The notes beneath the pieces were generated by a model, which was not told the DNA's origin, ran no database searches, and saw only the letters and a program-made list of their open reading frames with translations. Positions 9,980 through 33,450 of a DNA stretch of 64,000 nucleotides are shown here, piece by piece. Source of the stretch: an uncultured Acidobacteriota bacterium (GTDB lineage Bacteria > Acidobacteriota > Blastocatellia > Pyrinomonadales > Pyrinomonadaceae); contig CALMAH010000038.1 in NCBI GenBank assembly GCA_937859595.1, forward strand, positions 59,119 through 123,118, given 5' to 3'. The position numbers and the translations under genes are program-made. Numbering within the stretch: the first letter of the stretch is position 1; each line of letters starts with the position of its first letter.

Positions 9980-11173
9980 ATGGGTCTGTGGGTAAAGAAT
10001 GCGAAGATGCCGGGCGGTGACCGGGCCGGAGCTATCAGATCTCTGTATATAGAGAAAGGAACGATAGCAAAGATCGGAGGTATAGACGACGCGGGCGACG
10101 CGATCGACGCCCAAGGTGCGCACGTTTTGGCGGGTTTCGTTGACGTTCATAACCACGGCGCGGTCGGTATCGATGTAAATTCGGCTAGCGCGGAAGAGCT
10201 TTTTCAGGTTGCCGCATTTCTTGCGCGGAACGGTGTTACCACATGGATGCCGACGCTCGTGCCCGATACTGACGAAAATTACGAACGGATCATCTCTGAG
10301 ATAGATCGGCTGATGGTGCTCCAGGAGGAAAGGCCTGTGGCAAGGGCCGTTGGGGTGCATTACGAAGGTGTATTTGCGAATGAGAAGATGTGCGGAGCTC
10401 TTCGCCCGGAATATTTCAAGAAATGGGGTGGTTCTTCTACCGCCTCCCGGCCGAGGCCGGATCCGTCATATACGGGAAGCGATCTAATTGATCTTCCGCG
10501 ATTGAAAAATGGCATTCACATGACCACGCTGGCGCCGGAGATCGATGGCGGCATTGAGATAGTAAAAGAATTAGTGCGGCAGGGATGGATAGCGGCCATT
10601 GGACACACCAGCGCAGAACTGGCAACGCTTAATGCGGCATTTGAGGCCGGTGCGCGACACGTGACGCATTTCTTTAACGCAATGAGCGGTATACACCATC
10701 GCGAGATCGGGGTCGCCGGATGGGCATTAACAAAGCCTGGGTTGACCTTTGACATCATTCCGGACGGGATCCACGTCGTACCGACGATGCTCAAGTTCGC
10801 CTGTCGTGCTAAAGGCTTGGATGAGGTTTGCCTGATCTCCGATTCGGTCGCCCCGACCGGCCTTGGCGACGGTGAATTCACTCTTTGGGGTGAAAAGGTG
10901 AGCGTTAAAGGCGGACAGACCTGCAATGAACGCGGAAGCATTGCCGGTTCGGTCGCGACTCTGACAGACGGATTCCGTCAGCTGCTGTCCCTTGGGTTTT
11001 CACCGGCGGAGATTGAGGTTATGGCTTCAAGAAATCCGGCGCGGCTTCTTGGACTTCTTGATATATGCGGCGCGGTCGAAGTAGGCAAACGTGCCGATCT
11101 GGTCGCAATAGATGACGCCGGACGTGTCGTGTTTACGATGGTTGGAGGTGAGGTGGTCCCGGGAGAGAGTTGA
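9980..11173 (+). CDS. nagA: N-acetylglucosamine-6-phosphate deacetylase
   Basis: GFVDVHNHG, HTSA and HFFNAM motifs of the NagA amidohydrolases. ATG at 9980 is preferred to TTG at 9974. It carries a Ser/Pro-rich insert (KKWGGSSTASRPRPDPSY). Confidence 0.85.
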   Translation: MGLWVKNAKMPGGDRAGAIRSLYIEKGTIAKIGGIDDAGDAIDAQGAHVLAGFVDVHNHGAVGIDVNSASAEELFQVAAFLARNGVTTWMPTLVPDTDENYERIISEIDRLMVLQEERPVARAVGVHYEGVFANEKMCGALRPEYFKKWGGSSTASRPRPDPSYTGSDLIDLPRLKNGIHMTTLAPEIDGGIEIVKELVRQGWIAAIGHTSAELATLNAAFEAGARHVTHFFNAMSGIHHREIGVAGWALTKPGLTFDIIPDGIHVVPTMLKFACRAKGLDEVCLISDSVAPTGLGDGEFTLWGEKVSVKGGQTCNERGSIAGSVATLTDGFRQLLSLGFSPAEIEVMASRNPARLLGLLDICGAVEVGKRADLVAIDDAGRVVFTMVGGEVVPGES

Positions 11174-11182
11174 ACTAAAAGT

Positions 11183-11217
11183 AAAAAAGGCTCCGCGATA
11201 ATGCCGCGAAGCCTTTA
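11183..11217. terminator. Hairpin between convergent nagA and the cpxP-like gene; T-run on the minus strand
   Basis: GGCTCCGCG / CGCGAAGCC stem with one mismatch, flanked by A6 on plus, which is T6 on minus. Confidence 0.45.
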
Positions 11218-11238
11218 CCCCCTTGTAGTGGGGAGAGT

Positions 11239-11754
11239 TTAGAGTTGTGTCTCGCCGTTGCCTTTTCCACCCCGGCGGCCTTGTCCTCGGTTCTGGAACC
11301 GCTCGGTGCGCTTCTGTTTCATTTCCTGCAATTTCGCTTTCTGCTCATCTGTTAGGATGGCAAGCGTTTGCTGGTGCATCGACTGACGGAAGGCCCTCAT
11401 CTGCACTGAGAACTGCCTGCGCTCTGCCAACAGTGCGTTAACGGTTGCCTCGTCAGCGTTGTTGGCTCGTGCCTCGCGGAGGTTCTGGCGATTGATCTTC
11501 ATCGCCTCCATCAGGGGCTGCAACGCCGGCTTGCTAGCTTCACGAAAAGCCTTTATCTGCTCCTTCTGAGCATCTGTCAGGTCAAGCCCACGAAACATCA
11601 TCCCGCCGCCGCGATGCATCTTGCCGCCGCGCTTCATCCCTTTCTTTCCGCCCCATCCTTCGCGTTTCGGACCTTCGCTGGTCTGGCCGATCACGAAGAT
11701 GGCACCCATTGCGACCAATACGACCGCCATCATAATTGCAACTATTTTTTTCAT
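11239..11754 (-). CDS. Spy/CpxP-family periplasmic chaperone (LTxxQ repeats)
   Basis: Signal peptide MKKIVAIMMAVVLVAMG. LTDAQKEQIKAF and LTDEQKAKLQEM are LTxxQ motifs. GGGAG RBS before the ATG at 11754. Confidence 0.75.
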   Translation of the reverse strand: MKKIVAIMMAVVLVAMGAIFVIGQTSEGPKREGWGGKKGMKRGGKMHRGGGMMFRGLDLTDAQKEQIKAFREASKPALQPLMEAMKINRQNLREARANNADEATVNALLAERRQFSVQMRAFRQSMHQQTLAILTDEQKAKLQEMKQKRTERFQNRGQGRRGGKGNGETQL

Positions 11755-11913
11755 TTCTTTACTCCCTTTGTAAAAATCCAGGCGGCCCATGCCGCGTTCA
11801 TACACTTAGACGAAAGAAATGGCCCAGCGAATGTAGTGATTACGTTAGGTAACGTAAAGAATTGTAAAACCCGATGCGCCTGCCCAGGTTTTGACGTAAT
11901 ATAGCTACGGAAT

Positions 11914-12603
11914 ATGAACAAGGTCCTTATAATCGATGACGATGAAGAGCTTTGCGACCTGGTGTCAGAGTATCTGACCGTCGAAGGCTTTGAGACAGAG
12001 GCGGTGCACGACGGCGAGAGTGGTCTTAAGCGGGCCGCCTCCGGTGACCATGAAATGGCCATTCTAGACGTGATGCTGCCGAAGATGAACGGTTTCGAAG
12101 TGCTGAGAAATCTCCGAAAGGAGTCGAGCCTGCCTGTACTGATGCTGACAGCGCGGGGCGAAGAGACCGAAAGGATCGTCGGACTCGAAACGGGGGCCGA
12201 CGATTATCTTCCAAAGCCGTTCAACCCGCGTGAGTTGGTGGCAAGGCTGAGGGCGATACTTCGCCGCACCCAGCCCGAAGACGGGGAAAGTACGATCCCG
12301 GAAAAGATCGTTGTGGGAGATCTTGAGCTTGCTCCGGCGGCGCGTTCGGTAAAGCTCGGCGGGAAGGACGTCTTTCTGACATCCGTTGAGTTCGACCTGC
12401 TCACCGCCCTGTTGAAGAAAGCGGGAAGCATAGTAAAAAAAGAGGATCTGAGCGAGACTGTTCTCGAACGGGAACTGTCGCCATATGACCGCAGCCTCGA
12501 CATGCACATCAGCAATCTCAGGAAAAAACTGGGCAGCCGCGACGATAACAGCGAAAGAATTAAGACCGTAAGGTCGGTCGGATACATCTATACAGTGGTA
12601 TGA
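11914..12603 (+). CDS. OmpR-family response regulator
   Basis: Receiver domain (DDDEEL..D..MP) plus a winged-helix C-terminus (RSVGYIY). Confidence 0.9.
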   Translation: MNKVLIIDDDEELCDLVSEYLTVEGFETEAVHDGESGLKRAASGDHEMAILDVMLPKMNGFEVLRNLRKESSLPVLMLTARGEETERIVGLETGADDYLPKPFNPRELVARLRAILRRTQPEDGESTIPEKIVVGDLELAPAARSVKLGGKDVFLTSVEFDLLTALLKKAGSIVKKEDLSETVLERELSPYDRSLDMHISNLRKKLGSRDDNSERIKTVRSVGYIYTVV

Positions 12604-13988
12604 ATCTTTTTCTAAAGATCTTTCTTTGGTTCCTTGCGGCGATCGCGTTGATGATCGGCGTGATGCTCTTCCTGAATTGGACCGTTCAGACCGAGCCTGT
12701 TGTCAGCAGATGGCGGGTCTCCGTCCGCAACCAGACGATCACGTATGCGGAAACCGCGGTCCAGATACAGCGAAGCCAGGGAGACGCCGGGCTAAACGAA
12801 TTTCTGGAACGCATTCGACGGCATGAGAATATTGGGGAGGTGGACCTCATCGGCGAAAGCGGCCGGCTTTACCTTTCGAAAGGCGTAAATGCGGACAATT
12901 ATAAGGATCTGGTGGCAAAGACACTGGCGAGCGACGATGTTGAGATCGAGAACTATCCCGAAACTGCGTTGTCTGCTCGGCGGCTGACATTTGACGATGG
13001 CGAGCGTTTTGTTTTGATCATTCGCTGGGAACGGCCGCGGATCACTCCCTTTTTTGGCGAATCGCCGCTAAGATATCTTCGCTATGCGGGGCTGCTGCTT
13101 ACGGCCTTTCTTCTCTGTTGGGCACTTGCGAGATATCTGTCCTCCCCGATCGGCAAGCTTAGAAGGGCGACGCAGCGGATAGCCGACGGCGATCTTTCGA
13201 CCCGTGTCGCGGACGAGGTAGGGAACCGCCGTGATGAGATCTCGGCTCTGGCCAGGGACTTTGACGAAATGACCGAGAGGATCGAATCGCTTATTCTCTC
13301 GCAAAAGCGACTCTCCCGCGACATTTCACACGAACTTCGCTCGCCGCTCTCGCGTCTCAATGTAGCTCTCGAAATTGCAAAGAAAAAGGCCGGAAGCGAA
13401 ATGAACCCGCTTCTCGATCGGATCGAAGGCGAATCGAACAAGTTGAACGAGATGATCTCCCGGTTGCTGACGCTGTCACGGTTGGAGACGGGAGCAAAGG
13501 ATTTCGACCGCCGCGAACTTAACCTCCGCTCGCTTGTCGAGCAAGTGGTATCCGACGCGGATTTCGAGGCGAACGCCAAGGGGAGGTCCGTCAAGCTGGT
13601 CAAAGCAGACGATTGCCGTGTGGTCGGAAGCGAGGGGCTGCTCCAGAGTGCTGTTGACAACGTGCTCAGAAACGCGGTTCGCTACACGAGAGAAGGCACT
13701 GCGGTCGAGGTATTTCTAACCCGGACGAACGGCACGGCAAATGTCCGTATAAAAGATCATGGGGGAGGGGTGCCGGAGGCGGAGCTTTCCAACCTGTTCA
13801 GGCCTTTTTACCGTGTTGACGAGGCCAGAGATCGCGGAAGCGGTGGAACAGGCCTGGGCCTTGCGATCGCAAGACAGGCAATAGCTGCCCATGAAGGCAA
13901 CATTTCTGCTCGAAATGACGAAGACGGCCTCGTGGTGGATATTTCGCTGAACTGCAAGCCGGCGACGGACAAGAACAAAGGCGGCTAA
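12600..13988 (+). CDS. Sensor histidine kinase (two TM segments, HAMP, HisKA, HATPase)
   Basis: SHELRSPLS H-box, plus N and G boxes (GGTGLGLAI). ATGA overlap with the regulator gene. Confidence 0.9.
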   Translation: MNLFLKIFLWFLAAIALMIGVMLFLNWTVQTEPVVSRWRVSVRNQTITYAETAVQIQRSQGDAGLNEFLERIRRHENIGEVDLIGESGRLYLSKGVNADNYKDLVAKTLASDDVEIENYPETALSARRLTFDDGERFVLIIRWERPRITPFFGESPLRYLRYAGLLLTAFLLCWALARYLSSPIGKLRRATQRIADGDLSTRVADEVGNRRDEISALARDFDEMTERIESLILSQKRLSRDISHELRSPLSRLNVALEIAKKKAGSEMNPLLDRIEGESNKLNEMISRLLTLSRLETGAKDFDRRELNLRSLVEQVVSDADFEANAKGRSVKLVKADDCRVVGSEGLLQSAVDNVLRNAVRYTREGTAVEVFLTRTNGTANVRIKDHGGGVPEAELSNLFRPFYRVDEARDRGSGGTGLGLAIARQAIAAHEGNISARNDEDGLVVDISLNCKPATDKNKGG

Positions 13989-14347
13989 CCCTCGCTCCGG
14001 GCCGCGATGAACGACCGTACGGCCATGATCACGAAAGCGAGGCAGAGTAGAGCCATCAGCAACTGCGAGACCACGGCCACGCTCATCTCAATAGACGAAA
14101 TGCGCGGTGCTAACCTGGCGGCGACCGCAATAAAACCAAGCAGTGCGACCAGGACCGCGGCATGCATCAGATGTTTGCGGAGGTTTTCCTTTGCCTTAGC
14201 CAGATGACCCAGGGCCAAGATAACGATACCGAAAAACGCCGGAATCAGAGCCGTGACACTGGCCGTTCCGGCGAATAAGCCATAACCGTAACCCGCTATA
14301 CCCAAAACTACAAGCAATCTTCCGATCAAAATAGATGTTCCCGGCAT
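13985..14347 (-). CDS. Small integral membrane protein (about four TM helices)
   Basis: 120-aa hydrophobic ORF with an ATG start. It is convergent with the kinase gene, with a 4-nt overlap. Confidence 0.55.
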   Translation of the reverse strand: MPGTSILIGRLLVVLGIAGYGYGLFAGTASVTALIPAFFGIVILALGHLAKAKENLRKHLMHAAVLVALLGFIAVAARLAPRISSIEMSVAVVSQLLMALLCLAFVIMAVRSFIAARSEG

Positions 14348-21222: not shown

Positions 21223-21754
21223 CAGGCCCGCGCAATTATGCCCACGCCACCCACACGAAGTCAATCGCCCCCGCGGAGTGGCAGTCACGGTCTGTCCGCT
21301 ATCGGCACTAAGGGCCACATCAAACTGCCCGGTACGCGAATCGCGGACATTTGTAGAAGGCCGCGAACCAAAAGCCTTTTGCACATTTCACCGCTGATCG
21401 ACCCGGCGAGACCGCCCGACACACCCCAAGCGAGATAGGAAAGTCCTCCACTTCGACCATAAACCCGGGTCAAAGCCGAGCCACCCCGCGTAGTAAGGAC
21501 ATCCCCGCCAACGGCGGTCACACAACTTTCCGACGGGGCCTCGCGCCCCCAAACGGAAAGCTGTGAATAAGGCAATCCTTTATCGAAGATCCCGGCCAGC
21601 AGTAACAAAAAAAATACCTAAACTAAAATTTTGGATTCAAATCCTCAAGAGCCGCCTAATAGTTTTCGTTTTGCCTTTACAGTAGTCCCCGACGAAAAGC
21701 CTCGTTCTGAACCAATGCAGATGTTCGGTGAAGCGTTTTGCAGAAACAGAAGTT

Positions 21755-21763
21755 TGGGATATA
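21755..21763 (+). promoter_or_regulatory. Possible extended -10 element (TGgGATATA) for the res operon
   Basis: TGn + GATATA lies 25 nt upstream of the ATG at 21788. There is no good -35. Confidence 0.25.
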
Positions 21764-21787
21764 TTTTGTGTCGTTCGAGAAGTTCCC

Positions 21788-24700
21788 ATGAGCGATAACC
21801 CAATACTAAACAACCCATACGACGAGCCTCGGCTACACTATGGTCAAACTTCCGACAATTCCCTGAATTATGAGGATGTGCGGAAAGGCCGCCGAGTATT
21901 TGATCCAAACTCCGAAAGACAACCCAATCCAACGAAAAAGGGAAGACAAAAGAAGCTCGCTTTCCCGATTGAGCCCGAGATCGACGCGGAAAAGCATATT
22001 ATCAATCTGATACGGAAAGAAGTCGGGGCTTGGCGGTCCAACGGATATCCGGAAACAACACGCGTAACAAGCGAATTGCTCCATTATTGGTTCAACGACC
22101 GTGATCGAGAGACCTGGCAACGCCTTTTCTTTGCGCAGCGTGAAGCTGTTGAGACTGCGATATGGCTTAACGAGGTTGCCGAACGATCCAATGCCGGCCA
22201 CAACATCCTTAGAATTTTGCGCGATTCACAATTGACGGTCGGTGATCGAGCCGAAGACCAATTGCCACGCGTCGCCTTCAAAATGGCGACCGGAACAGGT
22301 AAAACTGTGGTCATGGCGACGTTGGTACTTTACCACTTCGCCAATCGCCGGGAATACAAGAACGATGTTCGCTTTGCAGACTACTTTCTTATTATTGCAC
22401 CCGGCGTAACCATTAAGGATCGCTTAGGGGTACTTTTCGTCGACACACGAAACCTTCGTGAATTTGAACTCGAGGATTACTATCATCAAAGACATCTCGT
22501 ACCGCCAAGTCTTCAAGATAGTATCCAGAATCTTAATGCGCGACTTGTGATTACGAACTATCACTCTTTTTTGCCGAAGACGCTCCAGGGAAACAAAAAG
22601 AGTCCGTTCGACGGAAAGACCGATGTTCATGGAAATAAGCTAATAGGCGAAAACAAAGAGGATTTCGGCCTAGTCGTAAAGCGCATACTCGATAAATTCA
22701 AACCCGGAAGCCGTCTCTTAGTGCTAAACGATGAGGCTCACCACTGCTATCTTCCTAAAACGGACAAGAAGACCACCGACAACGAAGAGATAAACGAAAA
22801 TGAACGCGCAGCGGTCTGGTTTACCGGCTTGAGAGAGGTCGCGAAACGCTACAAGGTGCACAGCGTTTATGATCTTTCCGCGACCCCCTACTATCTAAAC
22901 GGATCGGGATATGAACCTTACAGTTTGTTCCCCTGGGTCGTAACTGACTTTGGGTTGATCGAGGCTATCGAGGCAGGCCTTGTTAAGATCCCGTTCCTTT
23001 CGGAGAGCGATAACACACAAGACCTTGACCAACCGTTTTTGGCGAATCTCTACACCCGGATAGTTGAACTAGATAAAAATGCATTCCCCAGAAAAGGACA
23101 GAGAAGAACGAGAGCACAAGCTAATCAAGAAGGCGTGATTCTTTCAGAAGCTCCACCAAAGCTTCCGCCGCAACTCCTTTCTGCCTTCGATATGTTCTAC
23201 AGGAACTACATAGATTACGCGAAAGGTGAAAGGCAAAGGCTTGAGGCTAGGCGCGATCTCTTCACGCCACCGCCGGTTTTTATCGTCGTTTGTAATAATA
23301 CGACCGTTTCTAAAGAGGTCTACAAATATCTTGCCGGGTATGAGTTTCACAATGGCGACGGTGAAATTCAGACCGTACCGGGAGCGAAAGAGCAGTTCAG
23401 CAACTACGACCAGAACGGAAGGCCAAAAAAGAGGCCACCGACTCTACTCATTGACAGCGACGCATTAGAGAATTCTGACCAGATCAATGACGACTTCAAG
23501 AAGATATTTGTTGAAGAGATCAAAGAGTTTCGCAAGGATTATACGCGGGTTCACGGGCAAGGAAGTGCGGAAAATATATCGGATGCCCAAATACTCCGCG
23601 AGGTCGTAAACACGGTCGGACAACAAGGAAAGTTGGGACAGGATATTCGATGTGTTGTCTCCGTTTCGATGCTCACCGAGGGTTGGGACGCCAACACTGT
23701 TACGCACATCGTTGGCGTGCGAGCATTTGGTTCGCAGCTTCTTTGCGAACAGGTTGCGGGTCGTGCTCTTCGCCGTGTGAGCTACATTCTTCAAGGCTAT
23801 GATAAGGACGGCGAACCGACGGAGGATAAGAGGAAGATCGTATCTCAGAAATTCCCTCCGGAATACGCACATATTATCGGGATACCGTTCAAGCTGTTCA
23901 AAGGCGGAAAAGCTGCACCGGCTCCGAATCCGGTTGAGACAACTCAGATCAAAGCGCTAAAGGAAAAAGAAGAACTAGAGATCACTTTCCCGAACGTAGA
24001 TGGCTATCGAATAGACACTGCTGGAAACAAACTCGAAGCAAATTTCGATGACCTCGAACCATTTGAAATAGACGGGACTAAAATTCCCGTAGAAACGATC
24101 ATGGGAAATGCAATCTCTCCTACTGAGATCAAGATGGGCATCGAACAGGTTCTCGAACGCCGCGAAGGAGAACTTATCTACTGGATCACAAAGGAAGTGA
24201 TCCGCCACAAATACTCGGACGACGACGGCAATCCGCAATTCCGTTACTTCGGCGACCTAAAAGGAATCGTAACTCGCTGGTACAACGAGCGGGTGAAGGT
24301 AATAGGAATTGCAGGAAGGGATTATCGCAAGCTTTTGTTCTTTCTCGACGGTAAAACCATTGCGTCTCACATCGTACGAGCGATAAACACGCATGAGAAC
24401 AATTCTGAATTTATTCGGCCCGTTCTGAACCACTACAATCCATTTGGGAGCACCCGGCATGTTCGCGGCGTAACAACAAAGCCGGTCTGGGAAACGGCGA
24501 AGTCTCATGTGAATTACGTCGTCGAAGACAGCGGTTGGGAAGGTATCGCCGCGAAAGCTCTTGATGAAATGGAGATCATCAGCTACGTAAAGAACAGCTT
24601 TCTAGAATTCCGAATACCATATATCAAGGACGGCGAAGAAGCGGGCTATTATCCTGATTTTATTATTCGAGCGAACGGCAAAGACGGAAAACCCATAAAT

Positions 24701-24892
24701 CTTATCCTCGAAGTTACAGGCTCAAACAAGAAACATAAGGCCGAAAAGAAATGGTACACCGAGAACAGATGGATTCCGGCGGTTAATGCCGTCCGAGAAA
24801 AACACGGAATGGATGAATGGCGCTACATTGAGATCCGGGATGATATACGGGATTTCAAGAATGAGATTCTACAAGAAATAACGACAATCTAA
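21788..24892 (+). CDS. res: Type III-like restriction enzyme Res subunit (SF2 helicase plus C-terminal PD-(D/E)xK-like nuclease)
   Basis: MATGTGKT (motif I), LNDEAHH (DEAH), SATP and QVAGRALRR (motif VI). C-terminal YYPDFII...ILEVTG nuclease-like motif. The start is at MSDNPILNNPYDEP. Confidence 0.85.
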   Translation: MSDNPILNNPYDEPRLHYGQTSDNSLNYEDVRKGRRVFDPNSERQPNPTKKGRQKKLAFPIEPEIDAEKHIINLIRKEVGAWRSNGYPETTRVTSELLHYWFNDRDRETWQRLFFAQREAVETAIWLNEVAERSNAGHNILRILRDSQLTVGDRAEDQLPRVAFKMATGTGKTVVMATLVLYHFANRREYKNDVRFADYFLIIAPGVTIKDRLGVLFVDTRNLREFELEDYYHQRHLVPPSLQDSIQNLNARLVITNYHSFLPKTLQGNKKSPFDGKTDVHGNKLIGENKEDFGLVVKRILDKFKPGSRLLVLNDEAHHCYLPKTDKKTTDNEEINENERAAVWFTGLREVAKRYKVHSVYDLSATPYYLNGSGYEPYSLFPWVVTDFGLIEAIEAGLVKIPFLSESDNTQDLDQPFLANLYTRIVELDKNAFPRKGQRRTRAQANQEGVILSEAPPKLPPQLLSAFDMFYRNYIDYAKGERQRLEARRDLFTPPPVFIVVCNNTTVSKEVYKYLAGYEFHNGDGEIQTVPGAKEQFSNYDQNGRPKKRPPTLLIDSDALENSDQINDDFKKIFVEEIKEFRKDYTRVHGQGSAENISDAQILREVVNTVGQQGKLGQDIRCVVSVSMLTEGWDANTVTHIVGVRAFGSQLLCEQVAGRALRRVSYILQGYDKDGEPTEDKRKIVSQKFPPEYAHIIGIPFKLFKGGKAAPAPNPVETTQIKALKEKEELEITFPNVDGYRIDTAGNKLEANFDDLEPFEIDGTKIPVETIMGNAISPTEIKMGIEQVLERREGELIYWITKEVIRHKYSDDDGNPQFRYFGDLKGIVTRWYNERVKVIGIAGRDYRKLLFFLDGKTIASHIVRAINTHENNSEFIRPVLNHYNPFGSTRHVRGVTTKPVWETAKSHVNYVVEDSGWEGIAAKALDEMEIISYVKNSFLEFRIPYIKDGEEAGYYPDFIIRANGKDGKPINLILEVTGSNKKHKAEKKWYTENRWIPAVNAVREKHGMDEWRYIEIRDDIRDFKNEILQEITTI

Positions 24893-24896
24893 CAGA

Positions 24897-26660
24897 ATGG
24901 CATTTCAAACCCCAATAACCATTAAAGAAGCCGTCGATAATATTCGGAGAAGGAAATACCTACTTCCTTCTATCCAGAGAAAGCTCGTTTGGAATTCTGG
25001 GCAGATCGAAAGGCTTTTTGATTCCTTGATGCGAGACTATCCCATCGGGTCATTTCTCTTTTGGCATGTTGATCGCGAACGTCTCAACGACTTCACGTTC
25101 TATGAATTCATCAAGGATTATCACGAACGTGACAACCGAAACAACGCCAAGGCGGATCCGATCAGCGACTCGGATATTACGGGCATTCTCGACGGTCAGC
25201 AGCGGCTTACGTCCCTTTATATCGGCCTTTTTGGTTCTTACGCTGAGAAAGAAAAGTCTAAGCGATGGGACAACGACAAGGCGTTTCCCAAACGCTTTCT
25301 GCATTTGAATCTTCTGAAAGGCTACACAGAAGATGAAAACGATCTTGAACTTGCGTATGATTTTTATTTCATGACCGAGGAAGAGGCTAGGGAGAACCGT
25401 ACCGACGACCCTGAGAACTTCTTTTGGTTTAGGGCCAGCGATATATTCACGTTTAAGAGCCACGGCGACATCGGTTCATTTTTGATGAGGGAGATCTCGC
25501 AAACCGCTGACCCTGAAAAGGCCCAATTTGCGAACGACACTCTTTTCAAGTTCTACTCTCTTGTTAACGACCGCCCGGTAATCAATTTTTTCCTCGAAAA
25601 GAATGGTGATCTTGATAAGGTGCTGAACATCTTTGTACGCGTGAACAGCGGCGGAACCCAACTAAGCTACGCAGACCTATTGCTATCGATTGCATCTGCA
25701 AGTTGGAACAAGCTGGATGCTCGCGAAGAGATCACTAATTTTGTCGAGGAAATTTCCGATCAGGGGACTGGATTTCGATTTAGTCAGGATTTCGTACTGA
25801 AGTCCGCCTTAGTGCTTTCTGACCTGCCAAACATCCAATTCAAGGTTAACAATTTTAACAACGCCAATATGCGGACCATCGAGGAAAATTGGGGGACGAT
25901 GTGCGATGCTATCAGACTGGCGGTTAACCTCGTTGAATCCTTCGGATATACACGCGAAACGCTGAGCTCCAATTACGCACTCATACCGATCGCTTATTAT
26001 TTGTTGAAAAAAGGAAACCCGCCCAACTTTGTTGAGTCGGCGAATTTTCTGAGCGACCGCCAAAACATCCGCAAATGGTTGATCGCATCACTCTTAAAAC
26101 GCGCGTTTGGCGGTCAGCCGGACACGGTTCTTAGACCGATCCGTCAGATACTGCAAAGGGATTCCGGAGCCTTCCCGATCGATGCGATAGTTGATGAGTT
26201 CAAGGGAAAAAATAAATCTATCGTTTTCACTGACGATGATATTTCTGCCCTTTTCGATCATTATTACGGAAGCCAATACACCTTTTCTACCCTGGCGGTC
26301 TTTTACCCGACCCTCGACTTTAAGAACAAATTTCACGTTGACCATATCTTCCCGAAGAGCCTGTTCAAAAGAAAGAACCTCCTTAATCGAGGAATAAGCG
26401 AACCAGACGCCGATGTGTTTATGGAGAACGTTGACTACCTCGCAAATCTTCAACTTCTCGAGGGGATTCCTAATATGGAAAAATCCAACAAGGAATTCAA
26501 GGACTGGCTCGAAGAGGCTTATCCTGATAAAGATGCGAGACGAGCATATATGGAAAGGAACTACATCCCCGACGTTGATCTTAGCCTTGAGAATTTTGGC
26601 GAGTTTTTTGAAGAAAGAACTAAATTGATGACAAGCAGATTTGCTCAATTGATCAAGTAA
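24897..26660 (+). CDS. GmrSD-family protein (DUF262 ParB-like NTPase plus DUF1524 His-Me nuclease)
   Basis: [20 protein letters not shown] and DGQQRLTS are DUF262 motifs. C-terminal HVDHIFPKS ... [15 protein letters not shown] is DUF1524/HNH-like. It starts 4 nt after the res stop. Confidence 0.85.
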
Positions 26661-26686
26661 GATTTGATTCTCGTGCAAAGCGAATT

Positions 26687-29317
26687 ATGACCAAGAAGAT
26701 CGACAGCATTGAGCATAAGGAAGAGAAGCGGGCATATATTCCCAGCAAGGAAGAGGCGGGGTTTGAGGATGCGAATCCGCATGTTCGGCAAGGGAAAAGG
26801 ACTCTTGAGCTTCCCGTTAATCCGGTCGTGACCCGCGGGCAGGACCCGGAATTGTTCTGGATGAACAAATACGGGAATGACGACCGCGAAGAGCTTTTGC
26901 GTGTAGATATTCGTTCGCTTTATCGCCACGAACATATTGAGCCGGAAACGCTGATCAGAAATCTTTACCGAATAACCGAGGACACAGAGGACCCGCAGGG
27001 CGATATCTTTGGCGAGATACCCGAAGCTTTCAAGGACATGATCGAACGTGACGATCTGGAGAAAGTTGCGGGATATTACGAACATAGTGACAAATGGAGA
27101 AATCGCCTAATTCAAGGCGACAGCCATTTGGTAATGGCGAGCCTTCTGGAAAGAGAAGGAATGGCCGGAAAGGTCCAAATGATCTATGTCGATCCGCCCT
27201 ATGGGATCAAATACGGATCTAACTGGCAGATCAAGCTAAATAATCGAGATGTGAAAGACGGAAGCGACGATCACCTGACCGGAGAACCCGAGGTCATCAA
27301 GGCATTTCGGGATACATGGGAACTCGGTATTCATTCCTATCTTTCATACATCCGCGACCGGCTGCTGATAGCAAAAGAACTCCTAACCGAAAGCGGAAGC
27401 TGTTTTGTCCAGATATCCGATGAGAATGTACATTTGGTTAGGAACGTGATGGATGAGGTTTTTGGAAGTGGTAACTTCTGTGGATTAATTCCATTCAAAA
27501 AGACTACCGGTTTCGGCTCGGAACTGATCGATTCGACCTACGATTTCCTTCTCTGGTATGCGAAAGCCAAGGAATCAGTGAAGTACCGAACTCTATATTT
27601 AGACCGCCCGCCCGACAAGACCGCAAGCGCATATAGCTGGATTAAGGAAACAAATGGAACATACCGGCGTCTAAAAAAGAGCGACTTCGATGATGCGGGA
27701 AACATCATTGTGGATCACGACTTTAGGTTCAGCACTTCGAGTCTTATGTCGTCTGGTGAATCTGAAAAGGGCTCGCAGCCGTTTGTTTTTGAAGGCAAGG
27801 AATACCGCCCCGCAAAGGGAACGCATTGGAAGACTCATCAGAAGGGGTTAAACAAATTGGCTGAAACAGGCCGTCTTATAGGAGTCAAAAATACGCTGGC
27901 CTACATACGAAAGGAAAACGACTTCCCTCTGGTAACTTTCGACAACGTTTGGAATGACACGCTCCAGAGTACATTTGCAATTGAAAAGCTCTACGTCGTT
28001 CAGACTACTTTAAAGGTCCTCCAGCGGTGTATTCTCATGACAACAGATCCAGGTGATTTGGTATTTGACCCGACTTGTGGAAGTGGAACAACTGCCGTTG
28101 TTTCGGAGCAATTCGGGCGTCGCTGGATTACGATTGACACAAGCCGAATCGCATTAAACATCGCCAAGACGCGTCTGATGACTGCAACGCTGCCGTACTA
28201 CAAACTTTACGACGAGACGGCAAAGGATATTCGGCAAGGATTTGTTTACAAGACAGTTCCTCACATTACCTTGAAGTCCCTCGCGAATGACGAGCCGCCC
28301 GCGACCGAGACGCTCTATGACAAACCGGAGATAGACACAAAGAGAATGCGGGTCAGCGGGCCTTTTACGGTCGAGACTTTGCAAAATTTTGAACCTGTCT
28401 TGCCCGAAGAAATAGCCGAAGAAACAATGGTCAGCGGCGAGAGCTTTGAGCAGATCATCAAAGACCATCTGCTTGCTACCGGAATCAAGAATGGCCGCAA
28501 AGATGAGCAGGTAATGTTCTCCCGCGTCGAAATACTTGCCGGCGAACGCCTTCACGCCGAAGGTTTTTATCAGAACGGCGTCGGAGAAAAGAAAGCCTAT
28601 TTCCACATCGGCCCGAAGTTCGGCACAGTCAGCAAGAAAGCCGTTAATGAAGCGATCCGGGAATGCCAATCCCGCGGAGATGCCCAATGGCTTGTAATTC
28701 TCGGATTTAGTTTTGAGAGCGACATAGAGGGCGGCACGCATACGACATCAATGGGTAATTTCGAAGTAACCCGCGCCCGCATCCATGATGATCTTTTACA
28801 GGAAGGCCTAAAGAAAAAACCGGCTAAGTCCGCCGCCTCTTTCGTGACCATAGGCGAACCGGATATTGTGCTCGTGTCAGAATCTACCACCCCGTCAGGC
28901 GAAGCGGCTGACACCCCTCCTATCCAGAAGGGGAGCTTTATGCAGGTCGAGATCAGAGGCCTCGATATCTACGACCCTATCAAGGACGAAGTTAAAGCCC
29001 GCGATCTTCACGATATCGCCTACTGGATGGTGGACGACAATTACGACGGATCGAACTTTATCGTCCGGCAGGTCTTCTTCTGTGGCGGCGACAAAGACGA
29101 GTTCGCCAAATGGAAAAAAGGCCTCGACACACTGGCCAAAGACAAAACCCGCAAACGCGCCGAGAAAACCCTAAAGATAGAAATAGACGAAGAAGCCTTT
29201 GACCGAATCTACGGCCACACTTCGCACCCAATAAAAATAAAAAACGAAGGCCAAAAGATCGCCGTAAGAGTAATCAGCCAATACGGCGAAGAATCAACGA
29301 AGGTCCTTACTGTTTAA
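26687..29317 (+). CDS. mod: Beta-class N6-adenine (DPPY) DNA methyltransferase, Type III Mod-like, with a long C-terminal extension
   Basis: [15 protein letters not shown] (motif IV) precedes [13 protein letters not shown] (motif I), which is the beta-class order. About 400 aa follow motif I. Confidence 0.9.
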
Positions 29318-29323
29318 ACCAAG

Positions 29324-30382
29324 ATGCAGCCTATAAGTGAATACAATTCCGTCGACGAACTTCCATCTTACGAGGAGATTGTTGAATATTTGCGAAAGAA
29401 GAATCGGCCGAGACATCTCTTGGTTGGGAATGGCTTTAGCATGGCTTACGACAGAGACATCTTTTCGTATAATGCACTCGCGCAGTTTGTCGATAACCTA
29501 GAGGATCAGCTTTTGAAGGATCTTTTTACGGCCGTGAATACAAAGAACTTTGAACAGGTAATGCAGCAACTGGAGAGCTTTTCAGAAATCGCTAGGGTTT
29601 TCGGAGCCGATTCGCAACTCATCCAACGGATTGCCGACGCCAGCGACTCCCTGAAGCGGAGCCTCCTAAATGCTGTCAAAGAGCTCCATCCCGAGCATGT
29701 ATTCAAAATTTCACGGGAAAAAAGCGCAAAGTGCGCTCAGTTTCTTTCGGGCTTCCTCGGAAGCGGCGGTACTATCTTCACGACAAATTATGATCTTCTG
29801 CTTTACTGGGTCTTAATGAGAAACGGTTTAGACAATAAAGATGGATTCGGCCGTGAACCACTCAATCCTGGCGTTTGGGAAGACGAGCCCGAGTATTCCG
29901 AACTTAGATGGGGTCTCAACAGTGACCATCAAAATGTGTTTTATTTGCACGGCGCCCTGCACATTTTTGATACTGGTACAGAAATCGAAAAAGAAGAATA
30001 CGACAATGCCCATTACCTTCTCGAAAAAGTTAAGGAGCGGATAGACGACGAGGATTACCCGATATTTGTAACAGCAGGAACAGCCCAACAAAAGATGGTA
30101 CATATCCGACATAATCGCTATCTGTCCTTTTGTTATGATGCTTTGGAACAGATCCGAGGATCACTTATAGTTTTTGGATTCGGCTTCGGACAATACGACA
30201 CTCATATCATCGACGCGATAAATAAGGCAGCGCTTCATGGTGCCAAAGGCACCGAAAAACTTCACAGTATATATGTCAGCATTAGAACGAACGAAAGCCT
30301 TGAGTATCTGAAGTCGATCGAAGATCGATTTCAACTCAAAGTGAACGGATTTCAGTCGGACACTGCGTGCGTCTGGGAGTGA
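29324..30382 (+). CDS. SIR2-like (DUF4917-type) protein, predicted NAD+-consuming effector
   Basis: LLVGNGFS (aa 32-39), IFTTNYDLL (aa 151-159), YLHGALH (aa 207-213) and LIVFGFGFGQYDTHI (aa 281-295) match the GAGxS / TTNYD / hG / GySl-D signatures of prokaryotic SIR2_2-type proteins. It starts 6 nt after the mod stop. Confidence 0.7.
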   Translation: MQPISEYNSVDELPSYEEIVEYLRKKNRPRHLLVGNGFSMAYDRDIFSYNALAQFVDNLEDQLLKDLFTAVNTKNFEQVMQQLESFSEIARVFGADSQLIQRIADASDSLKRSLLNAVKELHPEHVFKISREKSAKCAQFLSGFLGSGGTIFTTNYDLLLYWVLMRNGLDNKDGFGREPLNPGVWEDEPEYSELRWGLNSDHQNVFYLHGALHIFDTGTEIEKEEYDNAHYLLEKVKERIDDEDYPIFVTAGTAQQKMVHIRHNRYLSFCYDALEQIRGSLIVFGFGFGQYDTHIIDAINKAALHGAKGTEKLHSIYVSIRTNESLEYLKSIEDRFQLKVNGFQSDTACVWE

Positions 30383-30397
30383 TGGGCGGGTAGCGGG

Positions 30398-31453
30398 TCA
30401 CAACGCACCGTCCGTCTTCAACAAAGTAAGCAATTGAGCCCGCCGGTCTTTCCAGTGCCGGTCGGAGGTTTCCGTCTCAATAAAAGTAAGTAGCGCTTCG
30501 CGTTTTTCTTCGTCAATCTCATTCACATGATTTTCGAGTAGACCAATGAGAAAATCACATACATCGTCGTCCGCTATTATCCAGTTGACTTGAGAATTGT
30601 TAATATAAGCATCGATGAGATCATTTGCATCATTTACGTCAAAGCTATCGATTTTTGAAAGCGTGCGGATCGTTCCATGGGTCTGAGCAAAAGTCCCACT
30701 TCCCGCTAGATCATTGATTAATAATTGTTTTTCAAGTTCACTCGCGAGCAGAATTTGAGGGAAGTGTTCTTGGAGGAAAGAAGATATTCGTTTATAAAGA
30801 AACATTTCACCGCCGACCTTGGATGTCCATTCATCGCGGAGAAATTGATGAGCGGTTTGATCCCGAAACCCGCTCTCCCAGTCTTGGTCGTACGAAATGA
30901 GATGAAGATTATAATTCGAATCTAGATACTCGTTTACGAACGGGCTATCTCTTACTCTAGCCAGAAGTAGTTCCCAGTTAATCTCGTCGCCTAGAGGATC
31001 CGTCCGTTTTCCAGGGGGATTCCCTACATCACGGCGGACTCTCGCGTTACTGAATGCCAGACTGGTGGTTGCAATCAGTTCGGCTGAACTAAAGATTTGC
31101 TCAATCACCTGGTCCGCAACCAAATTCCGCGCTCGCATATCCTCTTCGATTCGGCTCAAGAGTTGATTCTTTGCTTTCTCGTAATCTTTTTTTCCCGAAA
31201 TTAGGTCGCTATACTCGTCGTAGCCTTTAATTAGTTGCGGAAAGGGCGGAAAGTCCTTTTTTCTGAATTCAATAATAGTATTAGCGATCTTACTGTCACG
31301 ATTCCTTCGAAACTCTGAGATCACCTGATCGGTTACCAGCAACTGGATTTTGCGCGATTTAATAAGAACATCGATTTTCCTAAGTTCCTCCAAATCCTCA
31401 TTAGAGAAATCAAAGAAATCGAGGTAAATATTTGTGTCAATAAAAATATTCAA
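30398..31453 (-). CDS. PIN-like domain protein (DUF4935-like N-terminus) with an uncharacterised C-terminal half
   Basis: N-terminus (M)NIFIDTNIYLDFF ... LLVTDQVISEF is PIN-like. TTG start with AGGAG 8 nt upstream. It is convergent with the SIR2-like gene across a 15-nt gap. Confidence 0.65.
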   Translation of the reverse strand: MNIFIDTNIYLDFFDFSNEDLEELRKIDVLIKSRKIQLLVTDQVISEFRRNRDSKIANTIIEFRKKDFPPFPQLIKGYDEYSDLISGKKDYEKAKNQLLSRIEEDMRARNLVADQVIEQIFSSAELIATTSLAFSNARVRRDVGNPPGKRTDPLGDEINWELLLARVRDSPFVNEYLDSNYNLHLISYDQDWESGFRDQTAHQFLRDEWTSKVGGEMFLYKRISSFLQEHFPQILLASELEKQLLINDLAGSGTFAQTHGTIRTLSKIDSFDVNDANDLIDAYINNSQVNWIIADDDVCDFLIGLLENHVNEIDEEKREALLTFIETETSDRHWKDRRAQLLTLLKTDGAL

Positions 31454-31618
31454 CGTTTCAGCTCCTGAGGGCCCAATATGAGATAGAATCGATTTAACAA
31501 TTTATCAATTAAGCGTTGAAACTATCAAACTGAAGTGAGTTTGGATAATTTGTTCACGGCTACTCAGGGTTTCGCGTTGCGGTTGAAAAGGGCGTAAATT
31601 CGGCGGTTAAGTGCTTGA

Positions 31619-31849
31619 TCTGGTATTTTTGACCTTTTAAAGCGCGAACAGCAGGAATTCGTCGACTTTGTCCTTTCGAAGTACGTAGAATCGGGCGTTG
31701 ACGAACTCGACGATGGAAAGCTCCCGCAACTGCATCAACTCAAATATGACTCGCTCGAAGATGGAGTTAATATTCTAGGCGATGTCGCCAGGATAAGATC
31801 GACCTTCATCAACTTTCAGAAACACCTTTACGAGACAAGGCCGGTCTGA
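31619..31849 (+). pseudogene. Remnant of a Type I restriction enzyme HsdR C-terminus (EcoEI_R_C-like)
   Basis: In-frame translation reads ..KREQQEFVDFVLSKYVESGVDELDDGKLPQLHQLKYDSLEDGVNILGDVARIRSTFINFQKHLYETRPV*. There is no start codon and no helicase part, and a stop sits immediately upstream at 31616. Confidence 0.55.
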
Positions 31850-32181
31850 GGAAATAGTCCCTGCCGGTCGCGTGTCTGCCTGTTCGGCCAAACGGTCCGG
31901 GTACGGCGACTGGTGCACCAGGTTTTTGAGCGAATCGGGATGGAAAGACAGAGCCATTCCGCAAATAGGGGCGCAAAGGCGAATTAAAAGATAGAAGGAT
32001 AAGGAATAAAGAGAAGAAGGAACCACGAAACACTAAAATGCCCTAAATGGAGGGAAGGCGGATAGCGGACAGTTGATAGCAATCAGCGGTCGGCTTTCAG
32101 CAGTCAGTAGTCAGCCGTTGATGGGAACGGGCGGCGGTTTTGTGCTGCGGGTGGGCGTAGGGTGGTCGTTTTTCGGTGGTT

Positions 32182-32325
32182 GGCGGTTCGGGCGCGGGGT
32201 TTGGGGTGCGGTTGGGGTGCGGGTCGGGTGCGGAAGCGGGGCGGCGAAGGGTTTTCGGCGCGTAGGATTACGCGACCCCCGCGGCGATATTGCTGAAAAG
32301 CCTGTAAATATGGGGGTTGGGCGTG
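32182..32325. repeat. G-rich direct repeat, copy 1
   Basis: Starts GGCGGTTCGGG and ends with a 24-nt block identical to copy 2 (GAAAAGCCTGTAAATATGGGGGTT). The core is roughly 80 percent identical by eye. Confidence 0.6.
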
Positions 32326-32487
32326 ATATTGTGTTGTTAGGGTGGCGATAGTTGGCGATCTTTCGTGGTTAGGAGGCCTAATTTCGCGGAAATCCGGTCC
32401 GCATTCATTGGGTTTCAGAAGCATCTGTACGATAAACGTGTGGCCTGATAGCTGCCGAACACGGTTTGGGTATTCGGTAGAGTTTCG

Positions 32488-32907: not shown

Positions 32908-32972
32908 CTGACGAGTGACGTGTCGGGAAGCGTATGAGTGTGCCGTTTGTTGAGCATGATGTGGGGTTGGGG

Positions 32973-33105
32973 GGCGGTTCGGGAGGCGGTTCGGCACCGG
33001 TTCGGCCTCGGAAGGGGGGCGGCAAAGGCTTTTGGGTGTGTAAAATTACGCGGCTGGGGGGCGGTATTGCGGAAAAGCCTGTAAATATGGGGGTTTGGGG
33101 TGGTT
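32973..33105. repeat. G-rich direct repeat, copy 2
   Basis: Same GGCGGTTCGGG start and the same AAAAGCCTGTAAATATGGGGG block as copy 1. It abuts the 21-bp array. Confidence 0.6.
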
Positions 33106-33122
33106 TTGGGCGGCGGGAGGTG

Positions 33123-33450
33123 GGCTGACAAAGCCCGTGGGAAGTGTTCCCAAGCCTTTGGGAAGTGTTCCCAAGCTCTTGAGAAGTGTTCTCAAGCCCT
33201 TGAGGAGTGTTCCCAAGCCCTTGAGAAGTGTTCCCAAGTCCTTGAGAAGTGTTCCCGAGCCCTTGAGTAGCGTTCCCAAGCTCTTGAGTAGCGTTCCCAA
33301 GCCCTTGAGAAGTGTTCCCAAGTCCTTGAGAAGTGTTCCCAAGCTCTTGAGAAGTGTTCCCAAGCCTTTGAGAAGTGTTCCCGAGCCTTTGAGAAGCGTT
33401 CCCAAGCCTTTGAGTAGCGTTCCCAAGCCCTTGAGAAGTGTTCCCAAGCC
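33123..33450. repeat. Tandem array of a 21-bp dyad-symmetric unit (consensus GTGTTCCCAAGCCCTTGAGAA), 14 full copies plus partial units at both ends
   Basis: Exact 21-nt phasing from 33144 to 33437, with a 13-nt partial unit at 33438-33450 and a degenerate unit before 33144. Each unit contains TTCCCAAG-CC-CTTGAGAA, whose arms are 7/8 complementary. Confidence 0.9.

Follow-up and report, generated by a model that had tools for sequence, protein, structure and literature searches.

The stretch of DNA analysed here, a 64-kb window (64,000 nt in all) from an uncultured bacterium of the family Pyrinomonadaceae, which belongs to the Acidobacteriota, carries four co-oriented genes separated by gaps of 4, 26 and 6 nt. 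They encode, in this order, a restriction endonuclease/helicase (Res), a BrxU-like enzyme of the GmrSD type, a long DNA methyltransferase (Mod) and a 352-residue SIR2-like protein, and the last of the four is the subject of this work (Table 1). The protein is a member of the DUF4917 family, also modelled as the defence candidate PDC-S21, and its gene is most likely an interchangeable piece of modular cargo at the 3' end of a restriction-modification (RM) operon rather than a component that depends on this operon. An identical protein is present in the public record as 'DUF4917 family protein [Pyrinomonadaceae bacterium]', on metagenome-assembled contigs with the same gene block.

The original prediction for this locus had placed four motifs in the 352-aa open reading frame (ORF), and a script check of the translation recovered all of them, and the ORF itself, at the same residue numbers: LLVGNGFS at 32-39, IFTTNYDLL at 151-159 (with N155), YLHGALH at 207-213 (with H209) and LIVFGFGFGQYDTHI at 281-295. 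It had also proposed that the gene is translationally coupled to that of the methyltransferase. The Mod stop codon and the start codon of the SIR2-like gene do not overlap and lie 6 nt apart, no Shine-Dalgarno-like purine run was seen in the 20 nt 5' of the ATG, and the junction came out free of terminator-like sites in the scan; across the operon, the counts of the promoter and terminator scan were at shuffle level and hence uninformative. What stands is that the two genes are very likely tightly co-transcribed, whereas coupling of their translation is no more than an inference.

Profile searches assign the protein to DUF4917 over the full length of the model. Pfam PF16263 matches residues 32-351 with its positions 1-311 of 311 (E-value of 1.6e-46, 159.6 bits against a gathering cut-off of 28), and of the PADLOC models for PDC-S21, PDLC04960 matches residues 12-351 with its positions 3-334 of 336 (E-value of 6e-111) and PDLC04961 reaches 7.6e-69. 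Judged by these scores, the motif and family signal of the ORF is far above chance. The Pfam SIR2_2 model (PF13289) passes marginally, with 25.2 bits against a gathering cut-off of 24.5 (SIR2_2 and DUF4917 were the families that the original prediction had expected), and the SIR2 models of PADLOC give a string of weak matches that together cover residues 12-339. The NCBIfam equivalog SIR2_antiphage (NF042942, 'SIR2 family anti-phage-associated protein') scores 18.7 bits, far below its cut-off of 500. Since Pfam, PADLOC and the Foldseek comparison described below agree, the description of the protein as SIR2-like and DUF4917-type is well founded.

The family is large. An exhaustive profile search gave 2758 clusters (at 50% identity) with E-values of at most 1e-3, and 2036 with E-values of at most 1e-10, and its members are found across many bacterial phyla and on plasmids. 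Most of the full-length matches among those listed are 330-385 aa long; the median length of 129 full-length representatives is 349 aa, and the longest has 479 aa. No informative domain fusion was found in the longer members. The claim that the protein consists of little more than the SIR2 core, with no obvious sensor domain, is thus in agreement with both the family and the protein itself, which is single-domain and has no separate sensor domain. In the 479-aa member (P0324), residues 320-427 give a sub-threshold Pfam match to AbiH (E-value of 5.6e-4, 20.5 bits against a gathering cut-off of 30.9). This match overlies the HG-to-GxG part of the DUF4917 domain and is a hint that AbiH, a single-gene abortive-infection protein of lactococci, may be a distant relative. 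A phage origin or an anti-defence role of the gene was also considered and rejected, as tblastn found homologues in none of 50,697 phage records and there was no fold match in BFVD; the gene is cellular.

Residue conservation was measured over the 129 full-length representatives, clustered at 50% identity. The signature residues named in the original prediction are near-invariant in the family (Table 1) and correspond in alignments to the motifs GxG, TNxD and HG in human FAM118B and E. coli SIR2, and so the catalytic-type signatures can rightly be called intact. The catalytic-residue numbers of E. coli SIR2 were not found in the one paper examined for them. GNGxS, NYD, HG, G285, D292 and H294 are invariant across two subfamilies that share ~25% identity. 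Outside the classical motifs, the family has conserved residues of its own, namely E77 (100%), H122-P123 (96%) and, at 98-100%, K223, K257 and W351, of which E77 and H122-P123 sit within a helical insertion (aa 40-145). This pattern in the aligned sequences is the one seen when strong purifying selection maintains an active enzyme.

The first AlphaFold2 (AF2) model, computed from 24 close homologues, was mediocre, with a predicted local distance difference test score (pLDDT) of 70.5, a predicted template modelling score (pTM) of 0.63 and template modelling (TM) scores of only 0.35-0.39. It was replaced by a second model computed from a 50-sequence alignment of the two subfamilies (~25% identity apart), for which the pLDDT was 76 and the pTM 0.78. 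In a Foldseek comparison with the Protein Data Bank (PDB), the top 25 matches all had the SIR2 fold, and so did every match with a probability of at least 0.3. The top 15 chains were SIR2 subunits of SIR2-HerA (E-values of 4.5e-8 to 4.6e-5, whole-chain TM scores of 0.46-0.57), followed by human FAM118B, KomC, DSR2, Sir2Tm and CobB, with the canonical sirtuins at rank 21 or lower. The structure check suggested in the original prediction thus returned a SIR2 fold, with the SIR2 subunit of SIR2-HerA (Nezha; PDB 8sub, 8sxx, 8uae, 8j4u, 8wld) as the closest solved structure (TM scores of 0.51-0.57) and DSR2 among the matches. The all-helical insertion of ~105 residues, which follows the NAD phosphate-binding loop in the model, is a candidate regulatory or oligomerisation module.

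A PDB sequence search with a profile of close homologues gave no match even at E-values of up to 1. The more diverse two-subfamily profile reached FAM118B (E-value of 6.3e-5) and gave a weak match to the SIR2 subunit of E. coli SIR2-HerA (E-value of 0.067), with which NYD, HG and GFGxG are aligned at an identity of ~15%. Between the family profile and the sequence of Sir2Tm (100% identical to 1yc5_A), hhalign found no usable alignment, and hence the equivalence of the catalytic residues with those of canonical sirtuins is drawn from fold and motif order only. Canonical sirtuins have a Cys4 zinc module. The SIR2-like protein contains three cysteines only (137, 270 and 349), which makes such a module impossible, and sequence relatedness to sirtuins of the PF02146 type was not found either.

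In order to place the gene in its genomic setting, 80 homologue loci (51-58% identity, many phyla) and the closest metagenome relatives were compared, which gave 82 loci including that of the window. A locus was counted as RM-linked if an RM gene lay on the same strand and at most five genes away; 19 of the 82 loci were too near a contig end, leaving 63 that could be evaluated. No recognised RM gene was present in 35 of these 63 loci (window included), and the other 28 were RM-linked, 23 of them to type I and 5 to type III-like systems. Hence, RM linkage applies to about a third of all loci (27 of the 81 related ones) and to 45% of the loci that could be evaluated. The RM-linked members are polyphyletic: they are spread over at least ten separate lineages in a neighbour-joining tree, and their hosts switch between type I and type III-like systems. 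The window's nearest relatives, L081 (69% identity) and L001 (~58%), are preceded by type I genes, for HsdM and HsdS, and another metagenome-assembled genome (MAG) of the Acidobacteria has the order integrase-HsdR-HsdM-HsdS-DUF4917 with a 5-nt gap. In a Flavobacteriia-rich clade, DUF4917 is embedded in RM operons in nine of ten loci.

The RM gene lies directly upstream of DUF4917 in 19 loci, where it encodes HsdS (12), HsdM (3), Res (3) or HsdR (1). The intergenic gap behind it has a median of 5 nt and is at most 22 nt in 17 of the 19 loci, whereas the median gap behind non-RM genes is 119 nt. The association of DUF4917 with RM systems is therefore real, being both strongly enriched and tightly packed, and the window's 6-nt gap behind Mod is the usual embedding style of the family.

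This association does not extend to a fixed set of genes. When the window's own proteins were searched by tblastn against the 80 DUF4917 loci, Res had one match, GmrSD one, Mod three weak ones and the product of the PIN-domain gene next to the operon none. A conserved four-gene system was rejected because of this near-absence of Res, GmrSD and Mod homologues beside the 80 DUF4917 genes. The neighbour clusters that do recur are type I HsdM, HsdS and HsdR, GmrSD, and a type III Mod/Res pair different from that of the window. A GmrSD gene is co-embedded with DUF4917 in 9 of the 28 RM-linked loci (window included), but their order and adjacency vary, and the two are hence not a fixed pair. Other defence genes or candidates co-embedded with DUF4917 in type I operons are PDC-S02, PDC-S36, Tiamat TmtA and PDC-S60. 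Among the non-RM neighbours we find a typical defence-island mix of AbiEii, Abi_2, AbiH, AbiGi, HEPN, reverse transcriptases, UvrD helicases, KAP NTPase, McrBC, SLFN/AlbA, type II RM and integrases. Across the 81 related loci there is no recurrent partner gene, and an hhalign comparison of the family profile with 155 neighbour proteins, which looked for hidden paralogues or partners, gave nothing significant.

Two local arrangements were noted in this survey. In five type I RM operons that all belong to one clade, DUF4917 is accompanied, directly or at a distance of at most two genes, by a family of ~222 aa without a Pfam or PADLOC match, here called c11 (L015, 11133-11801, with cluster-mates in L050, L057, L073 and L077). 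This family may be a further embedded candidate or else a partner specific to the clade. In L033, a 1054-aa protein (11077-14241) is encoded downstream of the DUF4917 gene, behind a gap of 26 nt. Its N-terminus matches the ThsA1 models of PADLOC, and a TNYD-like stretch in it aligns to the DUF4917 profile. By these matches, L033 would hold two SIR2-type genes in tandem.

More distant members (24-34% identity) were found on 36 plasmids. In Methylobacter the plasmid gene stands behind a complete type I system, and on plasmids of E. coli and Leptospira it is solitary among toxin-antitoxin genes. DUF4917 also occurs on the chromosome in 36 of 5426 E. coli genomes. In the intact E. coli locus examined (H46), the DUF4917 gene is solitary, flanked by retron Eco8 on one side and an ABC-3C system on the other, with conjugative-transfer genes close by. 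An IS1A insertion splits the chromosomal gene in at least seven of the E. coli genomes among those listed (H64-H70, e.g. NZ_CP027701.1, 2990253-2991955).

A reciprocal comparison started from the RM family of the window instead. Seven plasmid loci carry the same combination of a BPTD_3080-family Res (36-52% identical to that of the window) and a long Mod. The core of Res followed by Mod is constant in all seven; two loci are bare, and five (L089, L090, L091, L098 and L099) have variable genes between Res and Mod and/or immediately behind Mod. This cargo includes DUF4747 and DUF2075 proteins, a 3'-5' exonuclease (in two loci), a UPF0175/DUF3368 toxin-antitoxin pair and, in one locus, a small hypothetical gene together with the phospholipase (CapV) and the nucleotidyltransferase of a CBASS system. 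DUF4917 is present in none of the seven loci, its slot being either empty or otherwise filled, as would not be expected of a core component of this RM family. It follows from this pattern that the GmrSD and SIR2-like genes of the window fill two variable cargo slots of the BPTD_3080 RM family, in line with the modular role proposed above.

These findings do not support the central claim of the original prediction, which made Res, Mod or GmrSD the necessary source of the protein's activation. RM genes are missing from more than half of the evaluable loci, the type of RM system varies where there is one, the nearest relatives follow HsdM or HsdS instead of a type III Mod, the copies in E. coli and on plasmids can be solitary, and unrelated cargo occupies the same Res-Mod slots. 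The further claim that a dependency on RM components would be new does not hold either. PrrC of EcoprrI is the classic abortive-infection effector held by an RM complex, and prrC occupies the slot after hsdS. Like prrC in this type Ic system, some DUF4917 genes, as putative genes of abortive-infection-type effectors, lie after hsdS, co-oriented and tightly packed. However, PrrC is an ABC-ATPase/HEPN RNase and not a SIR2-fold protein, and DUF4917 is not RM-exclusive. In the preprint by Payne et al. (bioRxiv 10.1101/2024.01.29.577857), PrrC is labelled as almost exclusively embedded in type I RM systems, the embedding of defence genes is presented as a general phenomenon, the BrxU-like HEC-05 is among the validated embedded systems, and 145 'phage defence candidate' (PDC) systems are derived and added to PADLOC. 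The name PDC-S21 itself was found neither in this preprint and the supplements searched nor in the other literature searched. The GmrSD gene of the window is such an embedded gene, as BrxU/GmrSD enzymes have been described within BREX, Hma and type I RM systems (Picton 2021; Payne 2024). Variable cargo slots, known from type I RM, BREX, DISARM and Hma, are thus also displayed by the type III-like BPTD_3080 RM family.

Comparison with known SIR2 systems places the protein within its family and apart from the sensor-coupled effectors. It shares with other DUF4917/PDC-S21 members the length of ~350 aa, the motifs and the embedding in RM operons, and is one of them; what sets the window gene apart is its host operon, a type III-like BPTD_3080 Res-Mod pair, and nothing structural. 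With ThsA, DSR2, Avs5, KomC and FAM118B it has the SIR2 fold and the catalytic-type Asn and His in common. FAM118B and KomC are small as well, and the titles of their PDB entries speak of filaments or helical assemblies. SIR2-HerA, KomC and DSR2 are NADase defence effectors, and FAM118B is a filament-forming SIR2-like protein. Unlike SIR2-HerA, the window operon has no HerA gene, nor is one found among the most frequent neighbour families of the 81 loci. In contrast to the sensor-coupled SIR2 effectors, neither a sensor domain (SLOG, Macro, STAND or tail-tube-sensing) nor a partner gene of the TIR or KomAB-like kind is detected in the window operon by Pfam or PADLOC. All of the 352 residues are accounted for by DUF4917, no ThsA model of PADLOC matches at an E-value of up to 0.01 and the operon has no TIR gene, which sets the protein apart from ThsA of Thoeris. 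DSR1/DSR2 and Avs5 combine SIR2 with a large sensor or STAND region in more than 800 aa, a length that a 352-aa protein does not reach.

The features of the locus are collected in Table 1. The mechanically derived Res ORF starts at GTG 21728 and has 1054 aa. The public gene call is shorter, at 1034 aa, and residue 23 is the first one covered by the NCBIfam alignment, so that the true start is probably ATG 21788 (MSDNPILNN..., 1034 aa). GmrSD retains intact motifs (DGQQR at 99, DHIFP at 482). The convergent PIN_12 gene is another island gene and not a conserved partner; the C-terminus of its product (residues 238-314) matches the PADLOC candidate PDC-S34 (2.2e-12). No tRNA gene was found in the 64-kb window. 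To the right of the island, at 33131-33450, there are ~15 tandem copies of a 21-nt unit, AAGCCCTTGAGAAGTGTTCCC, with 89% matches. This array is open in several frames, and its minus strand reads GNTSQGL-type heptads. Related G-rich repeats of 11 nt lie nearby (32185-32245 and 32951-33023), a 49-nt segment is repeated 777 nt apart (32283-32331 and 33060-33108, 88%), and the GC skew is +0.26 at 32-34 kb.

Table 1. Features of the operon, the SIR2-like protein and the surrounding island, in window coordinates
Feature	Position	Strand	Evidence or remarks
Defence island	21600..32000	.	GC profile; GC 45-49% in a 53-57% background
BPTD_3080-family restriction endonuclease/helicase (Res)	21728..24892	+	NCBIfam NF046055, 1016.8 bits vs cut-off 800; GTGKT and DEAH intact
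BrxU-like GmrSD type IV restriction enzyme (HEC-05), between Res and Mod	24897..26660	+	PADLOC HEC-05 2.5e-222; Pfam GmrSD_N, GmrSD_C
Long type III-class N6/N4 DNA methyltransferase (Mod), 876 aa	26687..29317	+	Pfam N6_N4_Mtase 1.2e-30; PADLOC MTase_III 6.5e-174; DPPY at residue 169
Mod stop TAA (29315-29317), 6-nt spacer ACCAAG, ATG of SIR2-like gene	29315..29326	+	
DUF4917 / PDC-S21 gene, 352-aa single-domain SIR2-like protein	29324..30382 (incl. stop codon)	+	ATG 29324, TGA 30380-30382
NAD phosphate-binding loop G35-N36-G37-F38-S39, after strand beta1	29426..29440	+	98-100% conserved; aligns to GTGIS of FAM118B
All-helical insertion, aa 40-145 (~105 residues), between beta1 (30-34) and beta2 (151-153)	29441..29758	+	AF2 model secondary structure
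N155-Y156-D157 of TTNYD, catalytic-type Asn/Asp	29786..29794	+	99-100% conserved; aligns to TTNYD of E. coli SIR2 (8j4u) and TTNFD of FAM118B
H209-G210, catalytic-type His of HG motif	29948..29953	+	100% conserved; aligns to LHG of E. coli SIR2
G285...D292-x-H294 strand-loop, GFGFGQYDTH	30176..30205	+	G285, D292, H294 100% conserved; aligns to GFGFGDYH of E. coli SIR2
PIN_12-domain gene, 351 aa, convergent	30398..31453	-	Pfam PIN_12 8.2e-14; stops 15 nt apart from SIR2-like gene

The chemistry of the family has been approached experimentally for one member, SliP of C. jejuni (Cjj81176_0779; PMC10421069). Purified SliP lowers NAD+ in vitro, and mutants of its GNG loop (G24A/G26A), equivalent to the GNG loop of the window protein, lose function (PMC10421069). 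SliP is also reported to deacetylate acetyl-lysine peptides modestly in the presence of NAD+ and zinc, with an action on the histones of neutrophils as well, and its authors read it as a flagellum-secreted histone deacetylase, i.e. a virulence sirtuin (PMC10421069). The slip operon includes the gene of a type I restriction R subunit, HsdR (PMC10421069), which is the typical defence-type context of the DUF4917 family. A defence role for SliP was apparently not considered in that paper, and the rlo-gene papers on the hsd loci of C. jejuni do not state which rlo gene corresponds to DUF4917. The two proteins share the Pfam family, the G-N-G loop and a location next to RM genes in an operon. They differ in that SliP is, as interpreted, a secreted protein of a pathogen, whereas the window gene lies in the defence island of an uncultured member of the Pyrinomonadaceae.

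The explanation towards which we lean, with moderate confidence, is that the SIR2-like protein is a self-contained, NAD+-consuming abortive-infection effector with a self-sensing trigger, co-expressed as a back-up layer with the type III-like RM system and the BrxU-like enzyme. Judging by the narrow gaps between them, the four genes would be co-transcribed. The RM enzyme would cut unmodified foreign DNA and GmrSD would cut hypermodified DNA; a phage that escapes both would switch on the SIR2-like protein, NAD+ would be cleaved, and its loss would cause the infected cell to stop growing or die before phage release. Because the family is single-domain and often solitary, the sensing of the trigger is most likely intrinsic. 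The protein may recognise a phage protein or nucleotide directly, or it may be switched on by the formation of oligomers or filaments as in other SIR2 NADases, possibly mediated by the 105-residue helical insertion. The link to RM systems would then consist of shared expression and layered defence and not of an obligate protein-protein dependency. NADase chemistry is suggested by the intact, near-invariant SIR2 residues, by the NADase effectors among the structural relatives and by the NAD+ consumption of SliP.

Several points weigh against this explanation. The NADase activity, the trigger and the oligomeric state of the protein are properties that we infer only; residues ~170-260 of the AF2 model are of moderate confidence (pLDDT 43-63); the sole experimental paper on DUF4917 calls its member a protein deacetylase and not a NADase (PMC10421069); and the literature search found no paper that links DUF4917 or PDC-S21 to phage defence or shows protection. 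Furthermore, the enrichment and tight packing of the gene behind RM genes in 27 of the 81 related loci leave room for a functional RM link.

Such a link could take the form known from PrrC, which is in essence the idea of the original prediction: the RM complex would hold the SIR2-like protein inactive until a phage anti-restriction protein disables this complex, and the SIR2-like protein, thus released or activated, would deplete NAD+. RM linkage in 27 of 81 loci is indeed far in excess of the ~1% expected for a random gene (a rough estimate from typical RM gene counts), the 19 genes immediately behind an RM gene at a median of 5 nt mostly occupy, after HsdS, the very slot of prrC in EcoprrI, the Flavobacteriia-rich clade is RM-embedded almost throughout, and SliP is likewise encoded in an operon with a type I R gene (PMC10421069). 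However, 35 of the 63 evaluable loci have no recognised RM gene, and the second subfamily (~25% identical), which was sampled in E. coli genomes and on plasmids, includes solitary members. It is also difficult to envisage a conserved docking partner when the hosts are as unrelated as type I HsdMSR and BPTD_3080 Res with a long Mod, when close relatives switch between them and when the RM family of the window takes quite different cargo in the same slot. DUF4917 is, moreover, not RM-exclusive, unlike PrrC as labelled by Payne et al. For these reasons we consider a guard of this kind unlikely. A broader proposal in the same spirit, which we hold to be similarly improbable, makes DUF4917 a minimal SIR2 NADase alarm that is attached to any host RM operon, type I or III-like, co-translated with it and gated by its methyltransferase or specificity module; NAD+ depletion may then fire when an anti-restriction protein or a failure of restriction perturbs the RM complex. 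If this were true, it would be a PrrC-style guard with an NAD+ effector, and SliP would be recast as a defence gene.

Two further alternatives concern the reaction itself. The protein could be a sirtuin like SliP, that is, a protein lysine deacylase that depends on NAD+ and whose role is regulatory or directed at a host, instead of an immune effector, as the report of deacetylation by the only studied DUF4917 protein suggests (PMC10421069). The catalytic Asn/Asp/His set, which is common to deacylases and NADases, would allow this. We nevertheless regard it as quite improbable, since with three cysteines there is no Cys4 zinc module, the profile does not align with Sir2Tm, and canonical sirtuins rank below the NADase-type SIR2s by fold. 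This reading also sits poorly with an uncultured member of the Pyrinomonadaceae known only from metagenome assemblies, with a gene that lies in a low-GC defence island and with neighbours that are defence genes family-wide, and the effects in the SliP assays, of about twofold, fit plain NAD+ consumption as well (PMC10421069). Alternatively, the SIR2 fold and the intact NAD+ site are compatible with a transferase that ADP-ribosylates a protein or nucleic-acid target of phage or host, for which the invariant E77, K223, K257, D292 and H294 could form an acceptor site. SIR2-type ADP-ribosyltransferases are typically accompanied by a macrodomain or another ADP-ribose-processing partner. Pfam scans, however, revealed no such partner among the neighbours, and the nearest structural relatives are reported as NADases; we give this option little credence.

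In summary, much of what is seen at the locus is already known: the gene already carries the DUF4917 annotation, it matches a defence candidate that has been catalogued, and its behaviour is that of the family at large. The extension is a small one: the RM system that hosts the gene is type III-like (BPTD_3080) and not of the type I, BREX or DISARM kind, and its family has the same variable cargo slots. The window locus itself is an ordinary layered defence island. The comparative picture argues against spending effort on a specific dependency on Res, Mod or GmrSD. The wider interest lies in the family, which is large (2758 clusters) and minimal and for which the only functional paper describes a secreted virulence sirtuin. 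If DUF4917 proteins are indeed single-gene, NAD+-depleting defence systems, they would be among the smallest SIR2 effectors known and would offer a clean system in which to study the sensing of infection by a SIR2 NADase that has no sensor domain of its own.

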